From contig JAZDNN010000024.1 in NCBI GenBank assembly GCA_043799675.1, positions 7,418 through 71,417 of the forward strand: a stretch of DNA of 64,000 nt, in the 5' to 3' direction. Below the pieces are notes generated by a model. That model searched no databases. It worked only from the letters and a program-made list of their open reading frames with translations, and had not been told where the DNA came from. This document shows, one piece after another, positions 3,159 through 56,695 of the stretch. Position numbers and translations under genes: made by a program. The DNA is from Candidatus Aenigmatarchaeota archaeon. GTDB taxonomy: Archaea > Aenigmatarchaeota > Aenigmatarchaeia > Aenigmatarchaeales > JACQIB01. The first letter of the stretch is position 1. Every line of letters starts with the position of its first letter.

Positions 3159-3419
3159 TCAACGCCTGATTATCTTGGTCTCTCGCTTGGTCACGAGGGT
3201 GTCCAGTATCTGCCTCAGCTTCGCGTCGGTAATCGTTTCCTTCAACTGACCCGCCTGCATGAGCTGGAGCAGGTACAGTTCCAGCTGGCTTGCAAGCATC
3301 GGATTTGCCATCCTGACGCGGCCGAGCCTCTCGATGGCCGCATTGTCGAGTATCTTGCTGAGCATCATCTTCTTCGCGACCTCGAGGTGCATCTCATCCG
3401 CTTGGGATTCCATGTTCAT
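3159..3419 (-). CDS. PDCD5/TFAR19-like dsDNA-binding protein
   Basis: 86 aa helical protein of the archaeal DNA-binding family usually adjacent to rps19e. Confidence 0.6.
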   Translation of the reverse strand: MNMESQADEMHLEVAKKMMLSKILDNAAIERLGRVRMANPMLASQLELYLLQLMQAGQLKETITDAKLRQILDTLVTKRETKIIRR

Positions 3420-3835
3420 GCCGAAGCACCCGCAAGCCTGTCGAGCAGCTTCTGCGCCTTCGGCGTGATTACCCTGCCCTTCCTCGGCTTCTCGACCTTT
3501 GTCACGAATCCGGCAGCCTCGAGCTGCTGCAACATGAGCCTGATGAATTTCCCGCCGGTCTTCGCATGATGGGCCGGCTTGTGGCCGCGCCTGTGCCTGC
3601 CGCCGAAAGCGGTCCTGAGCCTCTGGGTCCCGACCGGACCGGTGAGGTAGATCTTCCTCAGGATTGCGGCGCTCCTGATGTACCAGAAATCGGCCTGCTC
3701 CGGCGGCCTTTCGTTGCTGACACCCGACTTCGTAAATCCGGCCGCCGGGTGCGGCTTGATGGTCTCGATCTTTTTCAGTTCAGCGGCAAGCGCCGGAATG
3801 AGCTTATCCGCCGAAACTTCCTTTGCACTTGGCAT
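3416..3835 (-). CDS. rps19e: ribosomal protein S19e
   Basis: S19e-like sequence (FWYIRSAAILRKIY, RLRTAFGGRHRRG). Confidence 0.85.
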   Translation of the reverse strand: MPSAKEVSADKLIPALAAELKKIETIKPHPAAGFTKSGVSNERPPEQADFWYIRSAAILRKIYLTGPVGTQRLRTAFGGRHRRGHKPAHHAKTGGKFIRLMLQQLEAAGFVTKVEKPRKGRVITPKAQKLLDRLAGASA

Positions 3836-6046: not shown

Positions 6047-6253
6047 ATTGCTTTCAGAGGACGGGAGTATAAAAAGCGGAGTGGAGCCTTTAGTCTCCAC
6101 GCCACTTGCGAAACCCAAAAAAAGGTGGAGTGGAGCCTCGGGAGGGAATTGCACCCTCGACCTGCTGTTTGCTTGGTTGCTTACAAGACAGCCGCTCTTC
6201 TGCCTGAGCCACCGAGGCAAGAGATTTAATAGGCCGAGTCTTAAAAGCTTGGC

Positions 6254-13547: not shown

Positions 13548-14774
13548 ATGTACAGTATGAAAAACCCGAATTTGGTTGAGGCGGCCACCAAACCCGATAT
13601 AAGGTTCAACCCGAAGCGCTACACGTATAGTGTAGACCATCATTACTTCAAGATGTGGACGCCTCAAATGGCGTATATTTTAGGGTTCGTGTTTGCGGAC
13701 GGCGGAATAGAAAGGAACAATACGACCCTTGCCTTTGAGTTGCAGATGCGGGATAAAGAGATTTTACGAAAAATAAGAGCGGCTCTAAAATCTACCCATC
13801 CGATTTCAGCGACCAAAGCAGGCGAGTATGTACGATTACGGATCAATAGCCGTCAAATAGTTGACGATTTGAAGAAGCTTGGAGTAACGCATAATAAAAG
13901 CAAAGATTGCACATGTCCAGATATCCCTCAGCGGCTGTTGCCGCACTTCGTGAGAGGGTTCGTGGACGGTGATGGCTGGATTATTCAAAGAACCGGCAAT
14001 AACAGACATGAAATAAGCGCGGGTTTCTGCCATGGTTCTAAGGGGTTCCTTAGATCGCTGGTAAATCAGATTCGAGCGGCGCTTGATATCAAGGCATTTA
14101 ATCTACGGGCTAAGTATAAGGCAACTAGCAGCGGCAAGAGGTCGTGCACATATAGCATAGAATGGTATTCACACAACGCGTCGAAATTTTTAGATTGGAC
14201 ATACAAAGACGCAGACATCTTCTTGAAAAGAAAATACCAAAGCTATCTGAGAAGCAAACGGCTTTTTGAGGAGTTTTCTTCAAAAACGCGGCTTTGGAGA
14301 AAGGTCGAAACCAAACACAGAATGCCGCTAAGAGCCATCCTCGACGGCATGTTGGCCCGGGGTTCGAGCACCTGTCAGATTTCGGGGAATGTCGGAGTTT
14401 CATCGGCTACGATTTACAGGTGGTTAGACAAAACTGACATAAGGAAACCGGTGAAGAGGGTGTCCAAAGCGCCTGTTCTCATGAAGTGCCAGACCTGCGG
14501 TGACATTTTCAGAAAGTTTAAAGAAAACGCCAGCTATTGCTCACTTTCCTGTGCGGCGAAACATATGGCAGTTTCTAGATTGTCTGGGAACAACGTCACG
14601 TGCGCTGCATGCGGTAAACGTGTTTATAGGCCGAACTGGTGGTTTGCGATAAACAGTCGCGCCTTCTGTTCCAATAGTTGTCACGGGAAATGGCAAGAGA
14701 CCCGTTTGGCGACCAATTCGCTGCAACGCTGCAGGACCGATGGCCGCTTCCTTCCTGCTTCAGGGAGGCTATAG
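13548..14774 (+). CDS. free-standing double-motif LAGLIDADG homing endonuclease with C-terminal HTH and Cys-rich zinc-binding region
   Basis: motifs ILGFVFADGGI and FVRGFVDGDGWI about 100 aa apart. Confidence 0.8.
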   Translation: MYSMKNPNLVEAATKPDIRFNPKRYTYSVDHHYFKMWTPQMAYILGFVFADGGIERNNTTLAFELQMRDKEILRKIRAALKSTHPISATKAGEYVRLRINSRQIVDDLKKLGVTHNKSKDCTCPDIPQRLLPHFVRGFVDGDGWIIQRTGNNRHEISAGFCHGSKGFLRSLVNQIRAALDIKAFNLRAKYKATSSGKRSCTYSIEWYSHNASKFLDWTYKDADIFLKRKYQSYLRSKRLFEEFSSKTRLWRKVETKHRMPLRAILDGMLARGSSTCQISGNVGVSSATIYRWLDKTDIRKPVKRVSKAPVLMKCQTCGDIFRKFKENASYCSLSCAAKHMAVSRLSGNNVTCAACGKRVYRPNWWFAINSRAFCSNSCHGKWQETRLATNSLQRCRTDGRFLPASGRL

Positions 14775-47861: not shown

Positions 47862-48353
47862 TTGGACTGGCGCAAGGCATTTCACGACCGGTCATTTAAG
47901 AGCCGGAAAACAAAGCTGCTCATGCCGAAGTTCAGGTTCATTCCCGAGATAGCGATAGCTGATGTAGCCTTCGAAGCGGAAGGTAAGGACATCAATGAGC
48001 TGTTTGTGAACTGCGCCCTTGCAACCGAGGAATCCATGGTCAACACAAAGAAGGTGAAGCCGAAGGTCAGCAAGACCATAAAGCTGGAAGCGGATGCGCT
48101 GGACAGACTGATGATTGACTGGCTGAACGAGGTGATTTACTACAAGGACGCGGAGGGGCTGCTGTTTTGTGAATTCATCGTCAAGGTATTGCAAAAGGGA
48201 AAGAACTGGACGCTTGAAGCCACGGCAAAGGGCGAAAAGAGGGACCCGAAGAAGCACGAGCTCAGGGCGGATGTGAAGGCGGCGACTTGGCACCTTTTTG
48301 AACTGAAGCAGGAAAAGGGCAAGTGGAAAGCGAGGATTGTAGAGGATATCTGA
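47862..48353 (+). CDS. archease (RtcB activator)
   Basis: FIPEIAIADVAFEAEGKDINELFVNCALA matches the archease N-terminal signature. Confidence 0.6.
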   Translation: MDWRKAFHDRSFKSRKTKLLMPKFRFIPEIAIADVAFEAEGKDINELFVNCALATEESMVNTKKVKPKVSKTIKLEADALDRLMIDWLNEVIYYKDAEGLLFCEFIVKVLQKGKNWTLEATAKGEKRDPKKHELRADVKAATWHLFELKQEKGKWKARIVEDI

Positions 48354-48362
48354 TTACAACGC

Positions 48363-49196
48363 TTAGCTGCGTATTCCGCGGATTGTCCCTGTCGTGAACA
48401 CATTGTTGCCCTGGTCGACGTAATCTATCCGCACCGACACGCTGTACGGGTCCCCTGCGTTGCCGTTATTTCCCCGGCCGACATACCATGCGCTGTAATC
48501 GGGTTCCAGAGTTGGCGCGTTGATGTTGCTCAATAACGTTCCGTTCAGGGATACCAAGGCAATAGTTATAGCGTAATTGAAATGGGAATTCAGCAGGAGC
48601 ATCCTGAAAGTGCCGTTATGCGAGTAATCTGCATCGATCACGTCTATGCTGCCGAAATCGGATATCATCTTCGGCGTGCATGCCTGCGATTCCTGCGGTT
48701 TTGTATTATTCAGACCGCACGAAGCGGCATCAACACACGTACGCGTCTGCATCGCATTGGCGCCGCAAACCGACCACGCGCTGCACTGCCATACCGGGGC
48801 GCACGTGCATGCATCGCTTTCGGATGGCTTGCCTACGGTCGTCCCGCAGTGGTTCGAATCGCTGCACGTCCTTGTCTGGGTTCCCCCGACGCACAGGGAC
48901 CACGCACCGCAATACCAGTTCGGCGTACAATGGGTCACCTGCGCACAGCCGTTGGTTTCCTCCGGCCTGCCCGTGTTCGTACCGCAGGAGTTCTCATCAA
49001 CGCACGTCCTGGTCTGGACTCCGGAGACCGAGCATGCGCTCCATGCGCCGCACTGCCAGTCCGGCGTGCATACAGCTGGTGTCGGTTCGGGTTCAATCGG
49101 CCTTACAATAAACTGCATGACGAATACCAACGCAAGCGCGATGAGCATCAGGGACAATATCAGGATGACGGCGTTTTTGCTTCCGAATTTCAGCAC
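48363..49196 (-). CDS. secreted Cys-rich repeat protein (4 repeats of CxPxWxCxAWSxCxxxGxQTRTCxDxNxCG)
   Basis: signal anchor; repeats directly visible. Confidence 0.55.
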   Translation of the reverse strand: MLKFGSKNAVILILSLMLIALALVFVMQFIVRPIEPEPTPAVCTPDWQCGAWSACSVSGVQTRTCVDENSCGTNTGRPEETNGCAQVTHCTPNWYCGAWSLCVGGTQTRTCSDSNHCGTTVGKPSESDACTCAPVWQCSAWSVCGANAMQTRTCVDAASCGLNNTKPQESQACTPKMISDFGSIDVIDADYSHNGTFRMLLLNSHFNYAITIALVSLNGTLLSNINAPTLEPDYSAWYVGRGNNGNAGDPYSVSVRIDYVDQGNNVFTTGTIRGIRS

Positions 49197-49260: not shown

Positions 49261-50127
49261 TTAGCTGCGCTCTCCGGAAACCGTTCCGGTAACTGAAAAC
49301 CCGTTACTGCCGCTATCCAAGTATGTCATCGTTACAGCGAGGGTATATGGATCTCCAACGTGGCCATTCACTCCCATGGTATTTGTGCCTGTCAGCCATA
49401 CCCTTTCCAGAGGGAATAAGTTCATGGGCACGTTCATGGATGGTATTTGTAAACCGTTGACGCTTACAGACGTAATGCTGATGGTATCGCCAACCCTGTC
49501 CTCCACCCACAATTTTAACGTACCATTTGCAGCGTAATCGACATCCAGCACACCTATGTTCGTGAAGCCGCTGATTGTCTTGGGAGTGCAGGTCTGTGAT
49601 TCCTGCGGTTTGCTTGTCGTTGTCCCGCAAGAATTCGTGTCAATGCATGTTCGCATCCGCGTTCCGCCGGCACCGCACGCGGACCATGCATCGCATTGCC
49701 AGTTAGGAGTACATGTACATGGTTGTGTTTCCAAAGGCCTGTCGCTAAACAGATTGCATCTGTTTGCATCCGTGCATACCCTGCTCTGATTTCCCGAATT
49801 ACTGCAATTGGTCCATGCACTGCACTGCCAGTCAGGCACGCAGGGTGGCGTGCAGAACTGGGTTTCAACAGGCTTGTTATAATTCACGCTGCAGGAATTC
49901 GCATCTATGCATGTCCTTGTCTGCGTTCCTGAAGCGGAGCATGCATTCCACGCCCCGCACTGCCAATCAGGCGTGCATACTGGGGGCATCAGAGGCCCAC
50001 TTGGCTTAATCAGGGATTGCACAATATACAACGATGCAAGCGCAACGATTATTACAGCCAGAACCAAGATAATGACGTTTTTCTTTTCGGATTTAGGCAC
50101 ACCTATTTTCTTTTCTGACTTAGGCAC
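49261..50127 (-). CDS. secreted Cys-rich repeat protein, paralog
   Basis: same repeat module. Confidence 0.55.
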   Translation of the reverse strand: MPKSEKKIGVPKSEKKNVIILVLAVIIVALASLYIVQSLIKPSGPLMPPVCTPDWQCGAWNACSASGTQTRTCIDANSCSVNYNKPVETQFCTPPCVPDWQCSAWTNCSNSGNQSRVCTDANRCNLFSDRPLETQPCTCTPNWQCDAWSACGAGGTRMRTCIDTNSCGTTTSKPQESQTCTPKTISGFTNIGVLDVDYAANGTLKLWVEDRVGDTISITSVSVNGLQIPSMNVPMNLFPLERVWLTGTNTMGVNGHVGDPYTLAVTMTYLDSGSNGFSVTGTVSGERS

Positions 50128-50210: not shown

Positions 50211-51795
50211 ATGGAGCAGGAACCTGAAAAGCAGACAGGCAGTCTGCCGAAGGAAATCAAGAAAATCAGCGAGGTCGTCTGGGAACTGCCCACCAGCTAC
50301 AAGAAAGGCATGCGCGTGCCGGCAAGAATATATGCGACCAAGAAGCTGCTCGATGCGATGGACGCGGGAGTGTTCGAGCAGGTCACCAACGTCGCGACCC
50401 TGCCGGGAATCGTCAAGCATGCGTTCTGTATGCCGGATGGGCACTGGGGTATGGGTCAAGTCGCGGCTTGATTCACTCAAATATGGGTTCCCAATCGGCG
50501 GCGTGGCTGCATTCGACCCGAAGGTCGGCGTGATCAGCCCGGGCGGCATCGGGTTCGACATCAACTGCGGCATGAGGTTCGTCACTACCAACCTTACTGT
50601 CAAGGACGTCAAACCCAAGCTGAAAGAACTGGTGGATATCCTGTTCAGGACGGTTCCCGCGGGCGTGGGCGGGGAAGGGTTTGTAAAATTAAGCCGCAGC
50701 CAATTCGACGAAATAATGGTCCAAGGGGCCAATTGGGTCATCGAGCACGGCTACGGTTGGAAAGAGGACACGGAAAGAATAGAGGAGTACGGCTGCATCA
50801 AAGGTGCTGATCCGTCAAAGGTCAGCGACAAGGCAAGGACCAGAGGCATCACGCAGATGGGGACGCTCGGCTCAGGGAACCATTACCTGGAAATCCAGAC
50901 TGCCGAGAAAATTTTCCTTCCCGAAGTCGCAGAGGCATTCGGCGTGAACGAACAGGGGCAGATAGGGGTGATGGTGCACTGCGGCTCGAGGGGGTTCGGC
51001 CACCAAATCGGAACGGATTATCTCAGGATATTCGACATGGCAATGAAGAAGTACAACATCACGGTGCCTGACAGGGAGCTTGCCTGTGCGCCTTTTGCGA
51101 GCCAGGAAGGACAGGATTATTATCACGCGATGGCCTGCGCGGCAAACATGGCTTTTGCCAACAGGCAGGTGATTTTGCACAGGATACGCGAGGCTTTTGC
51201 AAAGGTGTTCAGGAAATCCCCCGAAGACATGGAAATGCACCTGGTGTACGATGTCGCGCACAACGTGGCCAAGGTGGAGAAACACCTGGTCGACGGTCAT
51301 GAAAAGGAACTGGTGATGCACCGGAAGGGGAGCACGCGCTGCTTCGGTCCGGGTAGGCCGGAGATTCCTGAAGCTTACCGCAAGGTCGGCCAGCCGGTGA
51401 TTGTGGGCGGCAGCATGGAAACGGGCAGCTTTTTGTGCGTGGGCACGGACAAGGCTCTGACAGAAACATGGGGAAGCACCATGCACGGCGCGGGCAGAAC
51501 CATGAGCAGGACTTCAGCGAGGAACCAGGGCTCGGGCTTGGCGTTGCAGAAGAAGATGGCCAAGGAAGGGATACTGGTGGAAGCCACGAGCATGAGCGGG
51601 CTTGCAGAGGAAGCGGGCTTTGCCTACAAGGACCTGAACGAAGTGGTCGAGACCATGGAAATCGCGGGCGTGAGCAGGAAGGTCGTTCTGCTGAGGCCTT
51701 TGGGTAATATTAAAGGCACCGCCCGGGCCTCATACAGCCTTTTAGCTTTCCCCATACTTGTCATGGTCTTGGCCTTGATTTCGTCCCTTATCTGA
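50211..51795 (+). CDS. rtcB: tRNA-splicing ligase RtcB, interrupted by a 31-nt frame-breaking insertion (candidate BHB mRNA intron about 50451-50481); C-terminus extended past the usual ...IKG end
   Basis: N-terminal ORF (50211-50471) ends ...AFCMPDGHWGMG*; second frame continues YGFPIGGVAAF...; deleting the 31 nt restores MPDGHWGYGFPIGGV. Confidence 0.8.
50451..50481 (+). other. 31-nt insertion in rtcB (candidate archaeal BHB-type mRNA intron, or pseudogenising indel)
   Basis: flanked by direct repeat TATGGG; exon UGGG (ending 2 nt before the junction) pairs with intron CUCA 2 nt before the 3' junction; internal hairpin UCAAG/CUUGA. Confidence 0.5.
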
Positions 51796-52859
51796 ACGAT
51801 AAGCGGTTCGACCTGTTTCCACCTCGTGATGTTCTTGCCGATTATTTCGAGAATCAATTCCTTTTTGGCCGTTTTCTCGGGATGCCTCAACGGCAGCAAT
51901 TCGAGCATCCGACGGACATCGGCCTTCCTGAAGATTTCTAAGGCGAAATAATCCTTGCTGTATCTTATACTGACCCCATGAGTGTCTCTGCCGTCCCCGC
52001 GCCTGAAAATCCTGTATAGAATTGGATTAAAGCCCTGTTCCCTTAGTTGCCGTTTTATCCTACCAAGCAAGGTTTTATTTTCGGTGCCTATCCGCATACA
52101 ACACTGCAAATTTTCCCTGATTTTCTTGACCAGAAGCGACCCTTCCGCATCGAAGTAGCCGGCCAGGAACGACAGGAAAACATTCCGTTCGGATTCGACC
52201 AACTCTGAAATCAATCGTTTCCTGTTTTCCAGCAAGAGGAAGTCGAAGCTGTTGTCGAGGTCTGCGGATGTCGTCCACATGTAATTTCCAAAAGTTCTGT
52301 TCTTCGCAGGATATGTCCTTACCTTCGCATATCCTTTGAACAGGCTCTCGAAGACATCCAGGAATCCTTCATGAGTCGTGTTGGTTATGGCCCGAATGGT
52401 ATGCTTCGATCTTCTGAAGGCTGTCACATCACCCTCCACGAAACCAACCATGTAAGCCTTTTCTTCATCCTTTCCATCAAAACTTTGCCGTTCATGTTTC
52501 CTGTTTGTCAGCAGGATAGCCTCATCGTTTCCACGCACCCGAAAGCCGTTTTCTTCCAGCACCTTATGCAACGTGCCTTTGGAAGAACCAAATTTCTTGG
52601 CCAGCTTTTTCAACGATATTTTCTCCGTGTCATAAAGTCTCAGAATTTCCGTCACAGGCAGGTGTTTCCTGTGAGACAACGAATGTGCCTGACTGAGATT
52701 CCTTATCGGTATGTCAAGTTTGATGAACCGTTTTCTTACGGCCGACCACGATATATCGTCTCCGAGCTTAACACTCAATATCGCCGCCACTTCTTTGAAC
52801 GTCTTACCGGACGAATAGAGACTCTCGGCTTCCTTCAGGAGTTCGCTGTTCAGCTTCAT
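51624..52859 (-). mobile_element. free-standing LAGLIDADG homing endonuclease gene (HTH N-terminus, two LAGLIDADG motifs)
   Basis: YMVGFVEGDVT and FLSFLAGYFDAEGSL; 3' end overlaps antisense to the extended 3' end of rtcB. Confidence 0.7.
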
Positions 52860-52914: not shown

Positions 52915-53991
52915 CTAATCATGCAGAATACATCCAAAAATATTATTATACCTTCCAGCGAGCGCATTTCTCAACCTGAACGTGTCGCCCTGCGCCGCAT
53001 AGGCCATCCAGCCCTCAAGGCTTTTCGCAGCCTGTTCTGCCGAAATCTCACCGGATTCGTACTGCAGTCTGAGTGCCGTCATCCTTTTTTCGAGCTTCAG
53101 CAGGTTCCTCCTTTTTGGAATCCTGTAGTGGTAGAACACCCTGAAGCCGAGCAACGATATCCCCTTATGCAAAGGGTAGACCTGCGATTTTTCCTCATGC
53201 AACTCTAGCTTTAACCGTTGTTTGAGGAACCCGTTTATCCCGCTCCTGAACTGCATCAGCGCGGCCTCAGACCTGTCCAGAATCACGAAGTCATCTACAT
53301 ACCGGAGATAGAACCTTGCCTTAAGCACGTGCTTCACGAAATGGTCCAGCTCATTCAGGTAGACGTTCGCGAAGAACTGGCTCGTCTGATTGCCTATCGG
53401 CATCCCCTTCGGCAGGGCAGGGTCGTTGTTCGACAGGATTTTCCGTACCAGCCAGAGCACGCTTTCGTCCCTTATTTTTCTCCGTATGATGCCAATCAGG
53501 ACATCGTGGTCGACGCTCGGGAAATAGTGCCTTATGTCGGCCTTCAGTGCATAGCCGACCACCATGTTGTTGTCCTTCGCGCCGTGCACCAAACGGCCGT
53601 TCCCGGAAACCTTTCGCTTGAAGCAATCAAACCTGTCCAATGCTGCCAGGCCGCCCTTTCCCTTCCTGTTGGCGTAGCTGTCGTGGATGAACGTTTTGTC
53701 GAAAATCGGTTCGAGCACGTTGCATAACGCATGATGGACAACACGGTCCCTGAAATGCGAGGCATGAATTACCCGTGTCTTGGGGTCGCGGATGATGAAC
53801 CGTTTCAACGGGCGCGGCGAATACGTACGATTTTCAAGCTCAGTTTTCAAATCTGCCAATTCGCCATCAAGATTAGCTTCGAATCTTTTGACATACCATT
53901 TCTTCGACTTGCCCTTCCTCGCCTTTCTGAATGCCAGCAAAAGGTTCTCTGGCGAGCAGACCTTTCCGTAAAGGTTGTCAAATGTTTTCAA
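52915..53991 (-). CDS. diversity-generating retroelement reverse transcriptase
   Basis: RT motifs including the DGR-specific motif-4 IGNQTSQ (IGxxxSQ) and YVDD; about 358 aa, no maturase or endonuclease domain; TTG start. Confidence 0.85.
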   Translation of the reverse strand: MKTFDNLYGKVCSPENLLLAFRKARKGKSKKWYVKRFEANLDGELADLKTELENRTYSPRPLKRFIIRDPKTRVIHASHFRDRVVHHALCNVLEPIFDKTFIHDSYANRKGKGGLAALDRFDCFKRKVSGNGRLVHGAKDNNMVVGYALKADIRHYFPSVDHDVLIGIIRRKIRDESVLWLVRKILSNNDPALPKGMPIGNQTSQFFANVYLNELDHFVKHVLKARFYLRYVDDFVILDRSEAALMQFRSGINGFLKQRLKLELHEEKSQVYPLHKGISLLGFRVFYHYRIPKRRNLLKLEKRMTALRLQYESGEISAEQAAKSLEGWMAYAAQGDTFRLRNALAGRYNNIFGCILHD

Positions 53992-54021
53992 AAATATCCC
54001 CTATCGGCGGCCCGTGCTATT

Positions 54022-54196
54022 GGCGCAGACCCCGTTGTCATTCAGGCTTCCCGCCAAAAGGCAATGAGGAAGTTTCCTGTTCGAGGGCCTGTTCGCATTT
54101 ATGCCGGCGGAACGTTTCCTTCCAACCGTTCGCATTGAAGCACCCTTGACGGCCCGAAGGCTCTCGTCCGTGTTCCAATCCGACCTGACGGAAGGG
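54022..54196 (-). ncRNA. DGR template repeat (TR), 175 nt unspliced; carries three BHB introns (plus-strand 54146-54162, 54099-54129, 54041-54073); spliced length 94 nt
   Basis: homologous to the 3' ends of the three target genes; Asn-codon (AAC/AAT) rich; see findings. Confidence 0.75.
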
Positions 54197-54436
54197 TTTC
54201 GGTAGCCTCTCCACCGACATGACACCGCGGCTTCAATCTTCGGGAACCTACCAACTGAAACCGCTGAATTTAATGGCACAAGCATTCGGACGGCATGAAA
54301 TGCCATCGCACCATCTTGCGCTCTATGGAAAGGCGTATAGCGCGGGCCTTTGCCGGGAGAATGAAATACCCGCCCCCCGATTGGGAAGGAAAGAACTCTG
54401 TCATGCAAAAATTGAGGGACGAAACGATTTATGCGC

Positions 54437-55183
54437 CTATTTTGAGGTCTTAACCGCTTTTTTTGCGGCGCAGACCCCGAGGTCATGCCTGAGCGAGGGC
54501 CCGCCCGCATCCGCATCGAAGCACCCCCCGTCGGAGTGCCAAGTCGACCTGACGGAAGCCACTTCAACCGGGATTAAGGCTTCTGTTTCGATTTCTACTA
54601 TATCCAGTTTGTTGTCTTTCATCCTGTAAGAAGCCGCTTTCTGTTTGGCCAGCTTTTGGATGACCTCAAGATTATGATTCCAGTAATCGTCCATCGTTGC
54701 CTTGTATTCCTTGTCGGAATTCATCAGTTCAGCCGACTCCTGTGCCTTGAAGTGTCTTACTCCAAAGTCCAGCTTGAACTCCTCGGGTATTCTCTGATAG
54801 ACCAGTTCCTGGATTATCCTGTCCGCATTGGCGATGAACCCTTTGCGTTTATAGTCCCTGAACTTTCCTGCGTCCCCTTTGGCCATCAGGAGCGCATAGC
54901 CTTTCTTTTCAAGGTCCTTTTCCAGCCTCTTTCCGTCAATTATGGCCAATATTTCATCGACCTCTCCCAACCTTTCTTTTACAGAAAAATCATCATCAAA
55001 TATTACAGAGCCATTGTAAGCGGCCAGCTTCGAATCATACGCGCCTGCTGCACGCAGATAATCGAGAACACAGCCTTCAACAGTTACAGGCACGGCTTTT
55101 CCCGTGAACCTGAATTCCCCGTCGATAATCCTCACTTCAGGCTCGGGCATCACGACCGTTGTTATTTTGCTCATGATAATCAT
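54437..55183 (-). CDS. DGR target protein A (variable region at C-terminus, plus-strand about 54467-54560)
   Basis: C-terminal ...SVRSTWHSDGGCFDADAGGPSLRHDLGVCA aligns to the spliced TR with differences at TR adenines. Confidence 0.75.
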   Translation of the reverse strand: MIIMSKITTVVMPEPEVRIIDGEFRFTGKAVPVTVEGCVLDYLRAAGAYDSKLAAYNGSVIFDDDFSVKERLGEVDEILAIIDGKRLEKDLEKKGYALLMAKGDAGKFRDYKRKGFIANADRIIQELVYQRIPEEFKLDFGVRHFKAQESAELMNSDKEYKATMDDYWNHNLEVIQKLAKQKAASYRMKDNKLDIVEIETEALIPVEVASVRSTWHSDGGCFDADAGGPSLRHDLGVCAAKKAVKTSK

Positions 55184-55186
55184 TCT

Positions 55187-55912
55187 TCAGAAGTGCTTCT
55201 TCACGACTTCGAGGTCTTTCATCAAAGCGTCATATTTCTTTGACTTTTCCAGAAGCTCCCGGTATTCGCTCTCCGCGACCTCGCACATCTTCGGAAGCTC
55301 GGCCTTCTCGTCCGTTTTAAGGAGGGCGCAGACCCCGTCGTCAGCCCAGTGCGAGGGCCTGCCCGCAGTCGCATTGAAGCACCCCTCGCCCGTGGTCCAA
55401 GCCGACCTGACGGAAGCTTCACCGTTTTCAAACGAGATGCTTCCCCTCCAGACCTTCTTTTTCGGTTTCTTGAACAGCCCGGCATTCACGAGTGTATCAA
55501 AGACGTCCGATTTGCTTATCCCGGCCCTTGTTCTTTTGCCGTCATATTTGAGTTCACCGTTCACTTCCTTCACGACGGGGTCGGCTATTATCTCGCCCTT
55601 CTCAAGGGCGACTTCCCTGTTGTGCAACCAATAATCAATATTCATTTTCTTGAACGACTTGTCCTCGTGCACCAAATCGTAAGAAACCTGCAACGGCAGG
55701 AGCGTGTAGCGCTCGCCGACCTTCTTTGATACTTCCTGACCGAGAAGCGTCATCTGCCTGTGGTCGAGGTTCGCCACGAGGCCATTGCCTTTGTAGTCGT
55801 TGTGCCCTTCGGCAGGACTTCCCTTCCATTTCGGGAAATACACCGTTTCCTTGCCCGTGGGCGGCACTATCTTTCCCGCTATCTCATGGACGATTTCGGC
55901 CTGTGTTACCAT
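55187..55912 (-). CDS. DGR target protein B (VR plus-strand about 55325-55416)
   Basis: paralog of A; VR differs from the spliced TR only at adenines (11 of 11 differences). Confidence 0.75.
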   Translation of the reverse strand: MVTQAEIVHEIAGKIVPPTGKETVYFPKWKGSPAEGHNDYKGNGLVANLDHRQMTLLGQEVSKKVGERYTLLPLQVSYDLVHEDKSFKKMNIDYWLHNREVALEKGEIIADPVVKEVNGELKYDGKRTRAGISKSDVFDTLVNAGLFKKPKKKVWRGSISFENGEASVRSAWTTGEGCFNATAGRPSHWADDGVCALLKTDEKAELPKMCEVAESEYRELLEKSKKYDALMKDLEVVKKHF

Positions 55913-55972: not shown

Positions 55973-56695
55973 TCAATCGCCGCATTCGTCCAAAGCCGCT
56001 TTCCTAAAATCCAACGATTTAGGAGGGTCCTTCAGAAACTGTTGATATTCGCTCTCCGCAATCTTGCGCACCTTCGGCTTCTCAACGGCCTTGCCCGTTT
56101 TCACGAAGGCGACAACCCCGCGGTCAGGCCCGGAGGAGGGCCAAGACGCACCCACAGCGAAGCACCCAAAACGGTTTCCCGACTTGACGGAAGAAATGCC
56201 GTCATTCTCGTAAATGATGCCCCAATCACAGACGTTGTGATTGAGCTGCTTGAACAGTTTTGCGCTGGCAAGCGTCTTTATCACGGACTCTGCGTCAATG
56301 TTCGCCTTTACGCTCCTGCAACCATCATTGAGCCTGAGCTCGCCGTCGACTTCGCTGACAATCGGGACGGAAATAACATCCCCGTTTCTCCGTATGACTT
56401 CCCTGTTGATTATCTTATAATCGGCCATCATTTTCTTGAAACTTCTGTCATTATGCACCAAATCATAACTCGTCTGAAACGGAAGTTCGGCATAACGCTC
56501 GCCCACTTTCTCGGATATCATCTGACCCAAGAACACGGACTGCCACTTATCGAGAGTCGCAACAAAACCCTTACCGTAACGATCGTTGCGTCCTTCTATC
56601 GGACTTCCCTTCCACTTCGGAAAATACGCCGTTTCCTTGCCGGTAGGCATCCTAATCTTGTCCAAAATTTCATAGACGATTTCAGCTTCACCCAT
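55973..56695 (-). CDS. DGR target protein C (VR plus-strand about 56108-56195; more diverged)
   Basis: paralog of B; VR-like C-terminus with adenine-site pattern plus extra divergence. Confidence 0.65.
   Translation of the reverse strand: MGEAEIVYEILDKIRMPTGKETAYFPKWKGSPIEGRNDRYGKGFVATLDKWQSVFLGQMISEKVGERYAELPFQTSYDLVHNDRSFKKMMADYKIINREVIRRNGDVISVPIVSEVDGELRLNDGCRSVKANIDAESVIKTLASAKLFKQLNHNVCDWGIIYENDGISSVKSGNRFGCFAVGASWPSSGPDRGVVAFVKTGKAVEKPKVRKIAESEYQQFLKDPPKSLDFRKAALDECGD

Follow-up and report, generated by a model that had tools for sequence, protein, structure and literature searches.

Background

Good descriptions exist of diversity-generating retroelements (DGRs) from Bordetella phage BPP-1, from nanoarchaea and from a virus of anaerobic methanotrophic archaea (ANME) (PMC4372165). 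These canonical systems have a reverse transcriptase (RT) with an adjacent template repeat (TR), and variable repeats (VRs) in the 3' part of their target genes. They also show adenine-biased differences between TR and VR, an AAY-rich template, several targets and a G-rich 3' boundary. The DGR considered here shares all of these features. It lies entirely on the minus strand of a 64-kb stretch of DNA (64,000 nucleotides, hereafter the window) from a Candidatus Aenigmatarchaeota archaeon, a member of the DPANN archaea. In the canonical systems the TR is collinear with the VR, whereas here it is interrupted by three introns of a type that belongs to the archaeal host.

The substrate of the archaeal tRNA-splicing endonuclease (EndA) is a 4-bp helix with two flanking 3-nt bulges on opposite strands, a motif called bulge-helix-bulge (BHB) (PMC4090602). 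EndA also processes BHB motifs outside tRNA, in rRNA precursors, one mRNA and a 5' untranslated region (UTR) (PMC7714728; also PMC4090602). In addition, engineering a self-splicing intron into the Bordetella TR showed that a DGR RT can use spliced TR RNA (PMC5703328). We consider it highly probable that the window holds a chromosomal DGR whose template RNA carries three BHB introns, which host EndA and the ligase RtcB would splice before mutagenic reverse transcription. The proposal is built on features that can be read from the DNA. The TR is interrupted, the interruptions have BHB geometry and this geometry is conserved with covariation; the spliced TR is related to the VR without gaps and with differences at adenines only; and genes for RtcB and archease are present. 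An earlier note on this DNA had called for splicing of the TR and gave no mechanism for it. Three canonical BHB introns, conserved in related archaeal DGRs, supply a supported candidate for that mechanism.

Three introns in the template repeat

The TR as encoded in DNA occupies 175 nt (54022-54196, minus strand) and precedes the RT gene, and three tandem paralogous target genes of ~240 codons each lie further upstream. VR-A (54467-54559) is at the 3' end of target gene A (open reading frame (ORF) 54437-55183, 248 aa). VR-B (55325-55417), the best-preserved copy, is in target gene B (ORF 55187-55912, 241 aa), and VR-C (56108-56193) is in target gene C (ORF 55973-56695, 240 aa). All three VRs are on the minus strand and sit in the 3' part of protein-coding targets. 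A repeat finder split the match between TR and VRs into short pieces, with four homology blocks and three TR-only insertions. MAFFT could align the TR and the three VRs only by opening three gaps, of ~17, 31 and 33 columns, opposite sequence found in the TR alone. The TR must indeed be spliced to match the VRs, as the earlier note had claimed, through removal of three TR-only segments of 17, 31 and 33 nt.

Exon 1 of the TR (CCCTTCCGTCAGGTCGGATTGGAACACGGACGAG, 54163-54196), in which the VR homology begins at 54194, is followed by the 17-nt intron 1 (AGCCUUCGGGCCGUCAA, 54146-54162), with the helix GACG/CGUC, the bulges AG↓A and AA↓G (arrows mark the cuts) and the inner hairpin GCC-UUCG-GGC. The 16-nt exon 2 (GGGTGCTTCAATGCGA, 54130-54145) leads into the 31-nt intron 2 (54099-54129). 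Its central helix is AUGC/GCAU and its bulges are GA↓A and AA↓A; the inner helix consists of CGGU/GCCG plus GGAA/UUCC, and the outer helix has 2 bp. The conserved 3' end of this intron, GCAUAA, is made up of a helix strand and a bulge, and the local minimum free energy (MFE) fold gives the BHB motif. The 25-nt exon 3 (ATGCGAACAGGCCCTCGAACAGGAA, 54074-54098) precedes the 33-nt intron 3 (54041-54073), with the central helix CAGG/CCUG, the bulges AA↓A and AA↓U and the inner helix CUUCCU/GGGAAG plus GCC-UUUU-GGC. It has no outer helix and represents the relaxed HBh' form. Exon 4 (TGACAACGGGGTCTGCGCC, 54022-54040) includes the adenine-free 3' block GGGGTCTGCGCC, which is common to VR-A and VR-B. 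All exons and introns are on the minus strand. Each of the three insertions has a 4-bp helix between two 3-nt bulges on opposite strands, each bulge lying 3' of its helix strand, together with an inner hairpin, and the central helix is free of mismatches in all of them.

The cuts were placed after the second nucleotide of each 3-nt bulge, a rule taken from the known geometry of pre-tRNA introns, and the splice junctions were read from the VRs as a record of the spliced product. The canonical bulge cuts reproduced the TR/VR junctions and yielded a 94-nt spliced TR of four exons. Intron 2, which is flanked by the 9-nt direct repeat AAUGCGAAC, allowed a finer comparison. The BHB junction gives AAU there, and a naive alignment, shifted by 2 nt, gives AAC. 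A T occupies the discriminating position in all three window VRs, and also in the VRs of two related loci (L001 and L178; see below).

Over the 92 nt compared, VR-B differed from the spliced TR by 11 mismatches without any gap, all of them at TR adenines. VR-A showed 14 mismatches at adenines and 2 elsewhere over the same length. VR-C is 6 nt shorter and has many changes at other bases; the missing 6 nt lie just upstream of the position equivalent to the junction of exons 1 and 2, and the reading frame of target C is kept. VR-C has decayed and is probably no longer diversified. In the target frame the spliced TR translates to SVRSDWNTDEGCFNANANRPSNRNDNGVCA with seven Asn codons, which bears out the Asn-rich template of the earlier note. 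Its further claim that the variation falls at the Asn codons holds in part: these codons do vary, but so do TR adenines generally, including those in Asp, Thr, Glu and Arg codons.

Conservation and covariation of the introns

An RT-based scan with one genome per species yielded 53 loci, the closest of them in metagenome-assembled genomes (MAGs) of Aenigmatarchaeota, Nanoarchaeota, Woesearchaeota and Pacearchaeota. Plain blastn recovered full-length contiguous TR/VR pairs in most loci with RTs of ~50% identity, and in the closest relatives only TR/VR fragments of 23-54 nt. Splice-aware alignment revealed three TR-only insertions, at the same places, in L001, L002, L003 and L016, and two in L004. 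Ten further loci (L174, L175 and L178-L185), obtained through a DNA pattern and exact-protein look-ups, have two or three insertions each, and L011 and L049 have one each. In total, 17 loci besides this one carry one to three BHB introns, and wherever there are two or three they stand at homologous TR positions. The RTs of these 17 loci are ~52-84% identical and come mostly from MAGs of Aenigmatarchaeota and Nanoarchaeota or from metagenomes. Sixteen other, more distant DPANN loci have contiguous TRs with no introns. Across the family, the introns are 15-55 nt long and are always found in the TR and absent from the VR. All 18 intron-bearing loci have the interrupted TR in the same place, with an RNA leader (RT-16, described below) on one side and the RT gene on the other. 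Once the introns were taken out, 13 TR-VR pairs aligned gap-free, with 163 mismatches at TR adenines and 4 elsewhere; the concentration of differences at adenines is seen only in this spliced form.

Other sequence collections were searched as well. A scan of viral contigs with the 14-nt GCATAAATGCGAAC returned chance matches only, and an RT-based scan of viral contigs gave one distant match. A 33-nt degenerate pattern applied to metagenome contigs found 3 loci, one of which is identical to L002.

The cutting rule was checked on known types of intron. As a positive control, it recovered the canonical 12-nt BHB intron at position 37/38 of the tRNA-Thr(UGU) gene of the window (6131-6218, minus strand, 88 nt), with the helix CUUG/CAAG, the bulges UA↓A and CA↓A and the anticodon stem as outer helix. 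In L181, a related Aenigmatarchaeota contig, the same rule gave a 15-nt canonical hBHBh' intron in the cbf5 gene (3270-3420, minus strand); it contains an in-frame stop, its outer helix has 9 bp and its bulges are AG↓A and AA↓A. This gene is called as two ORFs (DKCLD and TruB_N), and removing the intron restores both the reading frame and the conserved GHGGTLDPAVTGVLP. BHB introns in cbf5 mRNA are known from Crenarchaeota (PMC2738675).

The scored set comprised 34 introns in 13 loci that have a VR to score against. The central helix was free of mismatches in 31 of the 34 and had a single mismatch in the other three. An inner helix was present in every intron, ranging from 2 to 13 bp, and the outer helix ranged from 0 to 5 bp. 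A strict BHB test, requiring a central helix without mismatch and an inner helix of at least 3 bp, was passed by 28/34 introns, against 10/9331 slid registers and 1/680 slid registers of the same length. The BHB architecture with its junction after the second bulge base was kept in all 34 introns despite the change in sequence.

Hairpin sequences show no relation from one lineage to another, and the substitutions in the central helices are compensatory. For intron 1, the helices across lineages are GACG/CGUC, AACG/CGUU and AAUG/CAUU; for intron 3, they are CAGG/CCUG, CGAG/CUCG, UUCG/CGAA, CUUG/CAAG and UGCG/CGCA. Pairing in an alignment of 40 introns, built in the BHB register, reached 97.9% for the central helix and 97.1% for the inner helix, and the pairs were of many types. 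Covariation in this alignment scored 0.985, compared with 0.21 in shuffles and at most 0.17 with slid partners. UUCG and GCAA tetraloops were also swapped between relatives.

Proposed pathway and alternative explanations

We propose that a single transcript would carry the RT-16 leader and the interrupted TR and, separated from the TR by a 30-nt spacer, the RT reading frame. Host EndA would cut each BHB after the second nucleotide of each 3-nt bulge, at six sites in all, and RtcB with archease would ligate the four exons into the 94-nt template. The DGR RT would then copy this spliced template with adenine-specific errors, and the complementary DNA (cDNA) would replace the VRs of targets A and B, while target C looks retired. 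EndA and RtcB are thus the presumed cutting and joining enzymes, splicing would come before reverse transcription, and the element would be active today. The genes for RtcB and for archease, its cofactor, lie 1-6 kb away from the DGR. RtcB, the tRNA-splicing ligase, is encoded on the plus strand at 50332-51795 (Pfam RtcB, 3.6e-157), 1.1 kb from the RT gene, and archease on the plus strand at 47862-48353 (Pfam Archease, 7e-39). RtcB is also found within 2-4 kb of the DGR in L178, where it is adjacent, and in the more distant L003 (~2 kb); it is not near the DGR in L001 or in the remaining relatives examined. The linkage of RtcB with the DGR is suggestive at most.

The thermodynamic fold of the whole TR was no better than that of shuffles (z = -0.84), an uninformative result that was left aside in favour of comparative analysis. 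Several observations weigh against the proposed pathway. The whole-TR MFE fold holds only the motif of intron 3, and enforcing all three costs ~8 kcal/mol. In the outer, exon-exon helix overall pairing is 57%, and introns 1 and 3 of the window lack this helix. With so weak an outer helix, it is therefore hard to explain how the 16-nt and 25-nt internal exons would be held for ligation. Relaxed BHB forms are known substrates of some EndA types (PMC7714728, PMC5829648). The pair counts lean towards the model, as the register of the 40-intron alignment was that of the BHB, and so does the choice of introns among BHB candidates by their fit to the VR. An independent route, in which the gap was located first and the BHB second, led to the same introns for 27/34 gaps (2/3 in this window); at the 7 discordant gaps the aligner had split or misplaced the gap. 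L002 and L176, the sole near-identical pair of loci, have identical VRs, so that current activity is not indicated by them. Finally, Pfam detected no endA among the window ORFs scanned. Because all archaea have EndA, the gene is expected elsewhere in the genome.

An alternative without splicing is that the RT jumps across the bases of the stems while copying unspliced RNA. Each insertion is a stable hairpin that brings the flanking template bases together, and the survey of Wu et al. (PMC5758913) reports TR/VR length differences in 7% of DGRs and puts them down to RT slippage at AAC repeats. Such skipping needs a stem, but not a 4-bp helix with two 3-nt bulges and fixed junctions, which is kept in 34/34 introns. 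Moreover, a jump between the 9-nt repeats around intron 2 would delete 6 nt that the VRs retain, which argues against a drive by microhomology. The same motif and bulge pattern also mark the introns of tRNA and cbf5 mRNA in this lineage. We therefore regard hairpin skipping as improbable.

It is less probable still that the DGR is dead, with insertions that gathered in the TR after the last homing and VRs that are relics of a contiguous TR. The clear decay of VR-C and the identical VRs of L002 and L176 would fit such a history. Decay, though, is not expected to yield three independent insertions that are all canonical BHB motifs, or to place insertions at homologous sites where the lineages share only 55-65% RT identity. 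In addition, the helices are kept by compensatory changes and the exons keep their adenines and reading frame, which therefore points to purifying selection on a spliceable template. That the VRs were templated by a contiguous TR elsewhere in the genome, with the interrupted copy a bystander, has very little probability as well: our view covers 64 kb of the genome, but the window contains no contiguous TR copy, and with the interrupted TR in the canonical place in all 18 intron-bearing loci a second TR would be needed in each of them.

If the template is matured by splicing as we propose, the question arises of how the DGR protects its donor copy. It is conceivable, although we think it rather unlikely, that the introns were selected as part of the logic of the DGR itself. 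They leave no block of the TR DNA longer than 34 bp, so the donor may be unrecognisable to the cDNA and to homologous recombination with the VRs, and its adenines would be protected. In that event, the introns would provide the donor protection that is the role of IMH* (the TR counterpart of the initiation of mutagenic homing (IMH) site) in other DGRs. Splicing by EndA, RtcB and archease would become an obligatory, host-controlled licensing step for diversification, and this coupling would have left its trace in the neighbourhood of RtcB and the DGR in two separate lineages.

The RT-16 leader

The 177 nt directly 5' of the TR (54197-54373, minus strand) match the Rfam family RT-16 (RF03019) and would form the 5' leader of the template RNA. 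The cmscan score was 57.2 bits against a gathering threshold of 50, and the match spans the full model (1-158). The 3' end of the leader, GGCUAC cgaaa, leads straight into the TR. Weinberg et al. 2017 (PMC5737381) reported nineteen orphan motifs in the neighbourhood of RT genes, RT-16 among them. Its discoverers guessed that some of the RT motifs belong to DGRs, and RT-16 had no assigned role (PMC5737381). In 15 related loci, both intron-bearing and intron-less (L010 and L040 are of the latter kind), it immediately precedes the TR on the 5' side, and it is therefore the leader of the template RNA of this DGR family.

The end of the leader, GGCUAC (54200-54205), could pair with AAUAG(C), which trails the TR (54016-54021), through GCUA/UAGC. 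The same places could pair in relatives, as GGGCUA/UAGCCC in L016 and GGCUAC/GUAGCC in L175; all of these pairings were seen only by eye. Such pairing could bring the two ends of the TR together in a loop, perhaps in competition with the last helix of RT-16. Excision or circularisation of the whole TR by a BHB on its flanks was also considered and rejected; the only candidate was the short possible helix GCUA/UAGC, noted by eye, with no BHB geometry.

Reverse transcriptase and accessory gene

The DGR-type RT (52915-53991, minus strand) has 358 aa and a TTG start (Pfam RVT_1, 3e-16). NCBI lists a protein with 100% identity to it from a Candidatus Aenigmatarchaeota MAG, with the same 358-aa call and the same start, and the TTG aligns with the ATG (MKTY...) of relatives. 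The earlier note was right about the TTG start, but not in placing it against the TR end, from which it is separated by a 30-nt spacer (53992-54021, minus strand). The closest relatives of the RT adjoin TR/VR pairs in genomes of DPANN and of the candidate phyla radiation (CPR); its placement in the DGR clade is by similarity. Among these relatives, L018 is a DGR locus in the nanoarchaeal genome SCGC AAA011-D5, which belongs to the SCGC AAA011 single-cell series.

Avd is common in DGRs, but not universal. In agreement with the earlier note, Pfam gave no Avd match for the ORF overlapping the TR or for the ORFs between the targets and the RT. A tblastn search of the window with the RT-fused bAvd domains of relatives found nothing better than E = 0.35. 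In some related RTs of 469-523 aa (P0090, P0106 and P0119), the RT is joined at its N-terminal side to a bAvd-like domain (PF22296); the window RT is without it. The gene call of P0106 begins inside a translated TR (FWNDDNGPFNANANRR).

A 188-codon ORF (54001-54567, minus strand) was considered as a gene or an Avd and rejected, as it has no Pfam match and its region is accounted for by the RNA motif and the TR. Beginning at the end of target A, it spans the leader and the entire unspliced TR in the target frame, and it stays open because the three introns total 81 nt. Gene calls over this region are inconsistent among relatives, with similar ORFs annotated in L178, L179 and L183. This ORF is very likely not a gene.

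The 3' boundary of the repeats

The block GGGGTCTGCGCC occurs exactly three times in the 64 kb, at 54022 (TR), 54467 (VR-A) and 55325 (VR-B). The expected number was 0.53, and three or more copies occurred in 0/100 shuffles. Its counterpart in VR-C is GGGGTTGTCGCC (56108-56119). The earlier note had described this block as identical in TR, VR-A and VR-B and diverged in VR-C, which is correct. It had also read the block as IMH-like, in keeping with IMH/IMH* elements; GGGGTCTGCGCC alone cannot be such a pair because it is identical in TR and VRs.

The block is followed in the TR by the TR-specific motif AAUAG (54017-54021), which lies in the spacer and is conserved in all related TRs. At least 20 loci have a fixed, not random, difference at this boundary, with GG in the VR and AA in the TR (GGGGT vs GGAAT). 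These loci are L006, L009-L015 (L011 among them), L017-L019, L028, L038-L041, L045, L049, L181 and L184. The same pattern, IMH GGGGT against IMH* GGAAT, is known from nanoarchaeal DGRs (PMC4372165). The VRs of the window have CT, GC or TT where those of relatives have GG against the AA of the TR. The idea that introns replace the IMH/IMH* distinction was not cleanly supported, as L181 and L184, with two introns each, keep GG vs AA.

Target proteins and genomic setting

The target proteins A-C belong to a small family with 15 database relatives, all unnamed and all from Aenigmatarchaeota. The protein motif of the VR is ASVRSxWxxxxGCFxAxAxxPSxRxDxGVxA, where x denotes positions that differ among members. 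The variable domains of DGRs usually adopt a C-type lectin or formylglycine-generating enzyme (FGE)-like fold. The AlphaFold model of target B was confident (pLDDT 85.5), and no significant structural neighbour was found in PDB or BFVD. Its weak structural matches include C-type lectins and FGE-like proteins, but these are far from significant.

The window also encodes TFIIB, a TrmB regulator, the ribosomal proteins S8e and S19e and the RNA polymerase subunit Rpb4, and it therefore represents an archaeal chromosome rather than a virus. A scan with bacterial promoter and terminator models, which are not applicable to archaea, returned nothing.

Two free-standing ORFs of ~410 aa have LAGLIDADG_3 and helix-turn-helix (HTH) domains (51624-52859, minus strand; 13548-14774, plus strand). 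Of these, the first is situated between the RtcB and RT genes; it and RtcB run on opposite strands and share ~170 nt where their 3' ends overlap. Near the DGR of L184 there is a LAGLIDADG ORF as well. Two further ORFs on the minus strand, at 48363-49196 and 49261-50127, encode paralogous proteins of ~280 aa, with a hydrophobic N-terminal segment and 3 or 4 Cys-rich repeats (consensus CTPDWQCGAWSxCSxxGxQTRTCxDxNxC). Neither has a match in Pfam.

Significance and comparison with known systems

A full-text literature search found no paper that joins DGRs with bulge-helix-bulge or BHB, and none that combines DGR or template-repeat terms with the splicing endonuclease; Paul et al. 2017, on the DGRs of CPR and DPANN, lay outside its scope. 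In PMC4372165 and in the survey PMC5758913, introns are mentioned only as the group II relatives of the RT. DGRs and BHB introns are both well known, and their combination is new within the literature searched. The combination would change how the template is made, how such DGRs must be sought and what the RT-16 RNA is. This would be the first natural retroelement template that needs maturation by the tRNA-splicing machinery of its host, and it would tie DGR biology to archaeal RNA processing. Since the VRs are a DNA record of the spliced RNA, BHB junctions could be read from uncultivated DPANN genomes without transcriptomes. DGR finders look for a nearly collinear TR and VR, and blastn returned only fragments here; this archaeal DGR clade has therefore likely been under-called, or reported as RTs without repeats.

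As published, RT-16 was an orphan motif beside RT genes. Here and in the 15 related loci it leads into the TR of a DGR, so that it gains a role as the leader of an archaeal DGR template RNA. The Rfam model ends exactly where the TR begins, and the introns are outside it. Compared with canonical DGRs, the window DGR differs further in that no Avd gene was found in the window and in the 3' block that is identical in TR and VRs.

The length differences described by Wu et al. 2017 (PMC5758913) resemble our case in that TR and VR differ in length and the junctions lie beside AAY codons. As far as the available text of that survey goes, those cases were put down to slippage, whereas here we see structured elements of 15-55 nt with an RNA-processing motif, confined to the TR. 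A closer parallel is the td group I intron engineered into the Bordetella TR (PMC5703328). There too an intron is removed from the RNA, and what passes into the cDNA and the VR is the ligated exons alone. Together with earlier work cited there, that experiment proved the use of an RNA intermediate by DGRs (PMC5703328), and the window DGR would be its natural counterpart. The engineered intron was artificial, single and self-splicing, whereas those described here are natural, multiple, conserved in a clade and, presumably, of the protein-spliced BHB type.

The introns themselves are most like the archaeal BHB introns of pre-tRNA, pre-rRNA, cbf5 pre-mRNA and the 5' UTR of Haloferax HVO_1309 (PMC4090602, PMC7714728, PMC2738675). 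They share the helix and bulges, the cuts within the bulges, the occurrence of multiple introns per RNA and the relaxed forms that lack one flanking helix. Their lengths of 15-55 nt in the TR family compare with 11-129 nt in known tRNA introns. The likeness to HVO_1309 extends to their location, as the TR introns are in effect in the 5' UTR of the RT mRNA. They differ from all of these in their host RNA, which here is the template of a retroelement, and in the fate of the spliced sequence, which would be written into DNA at other loci.

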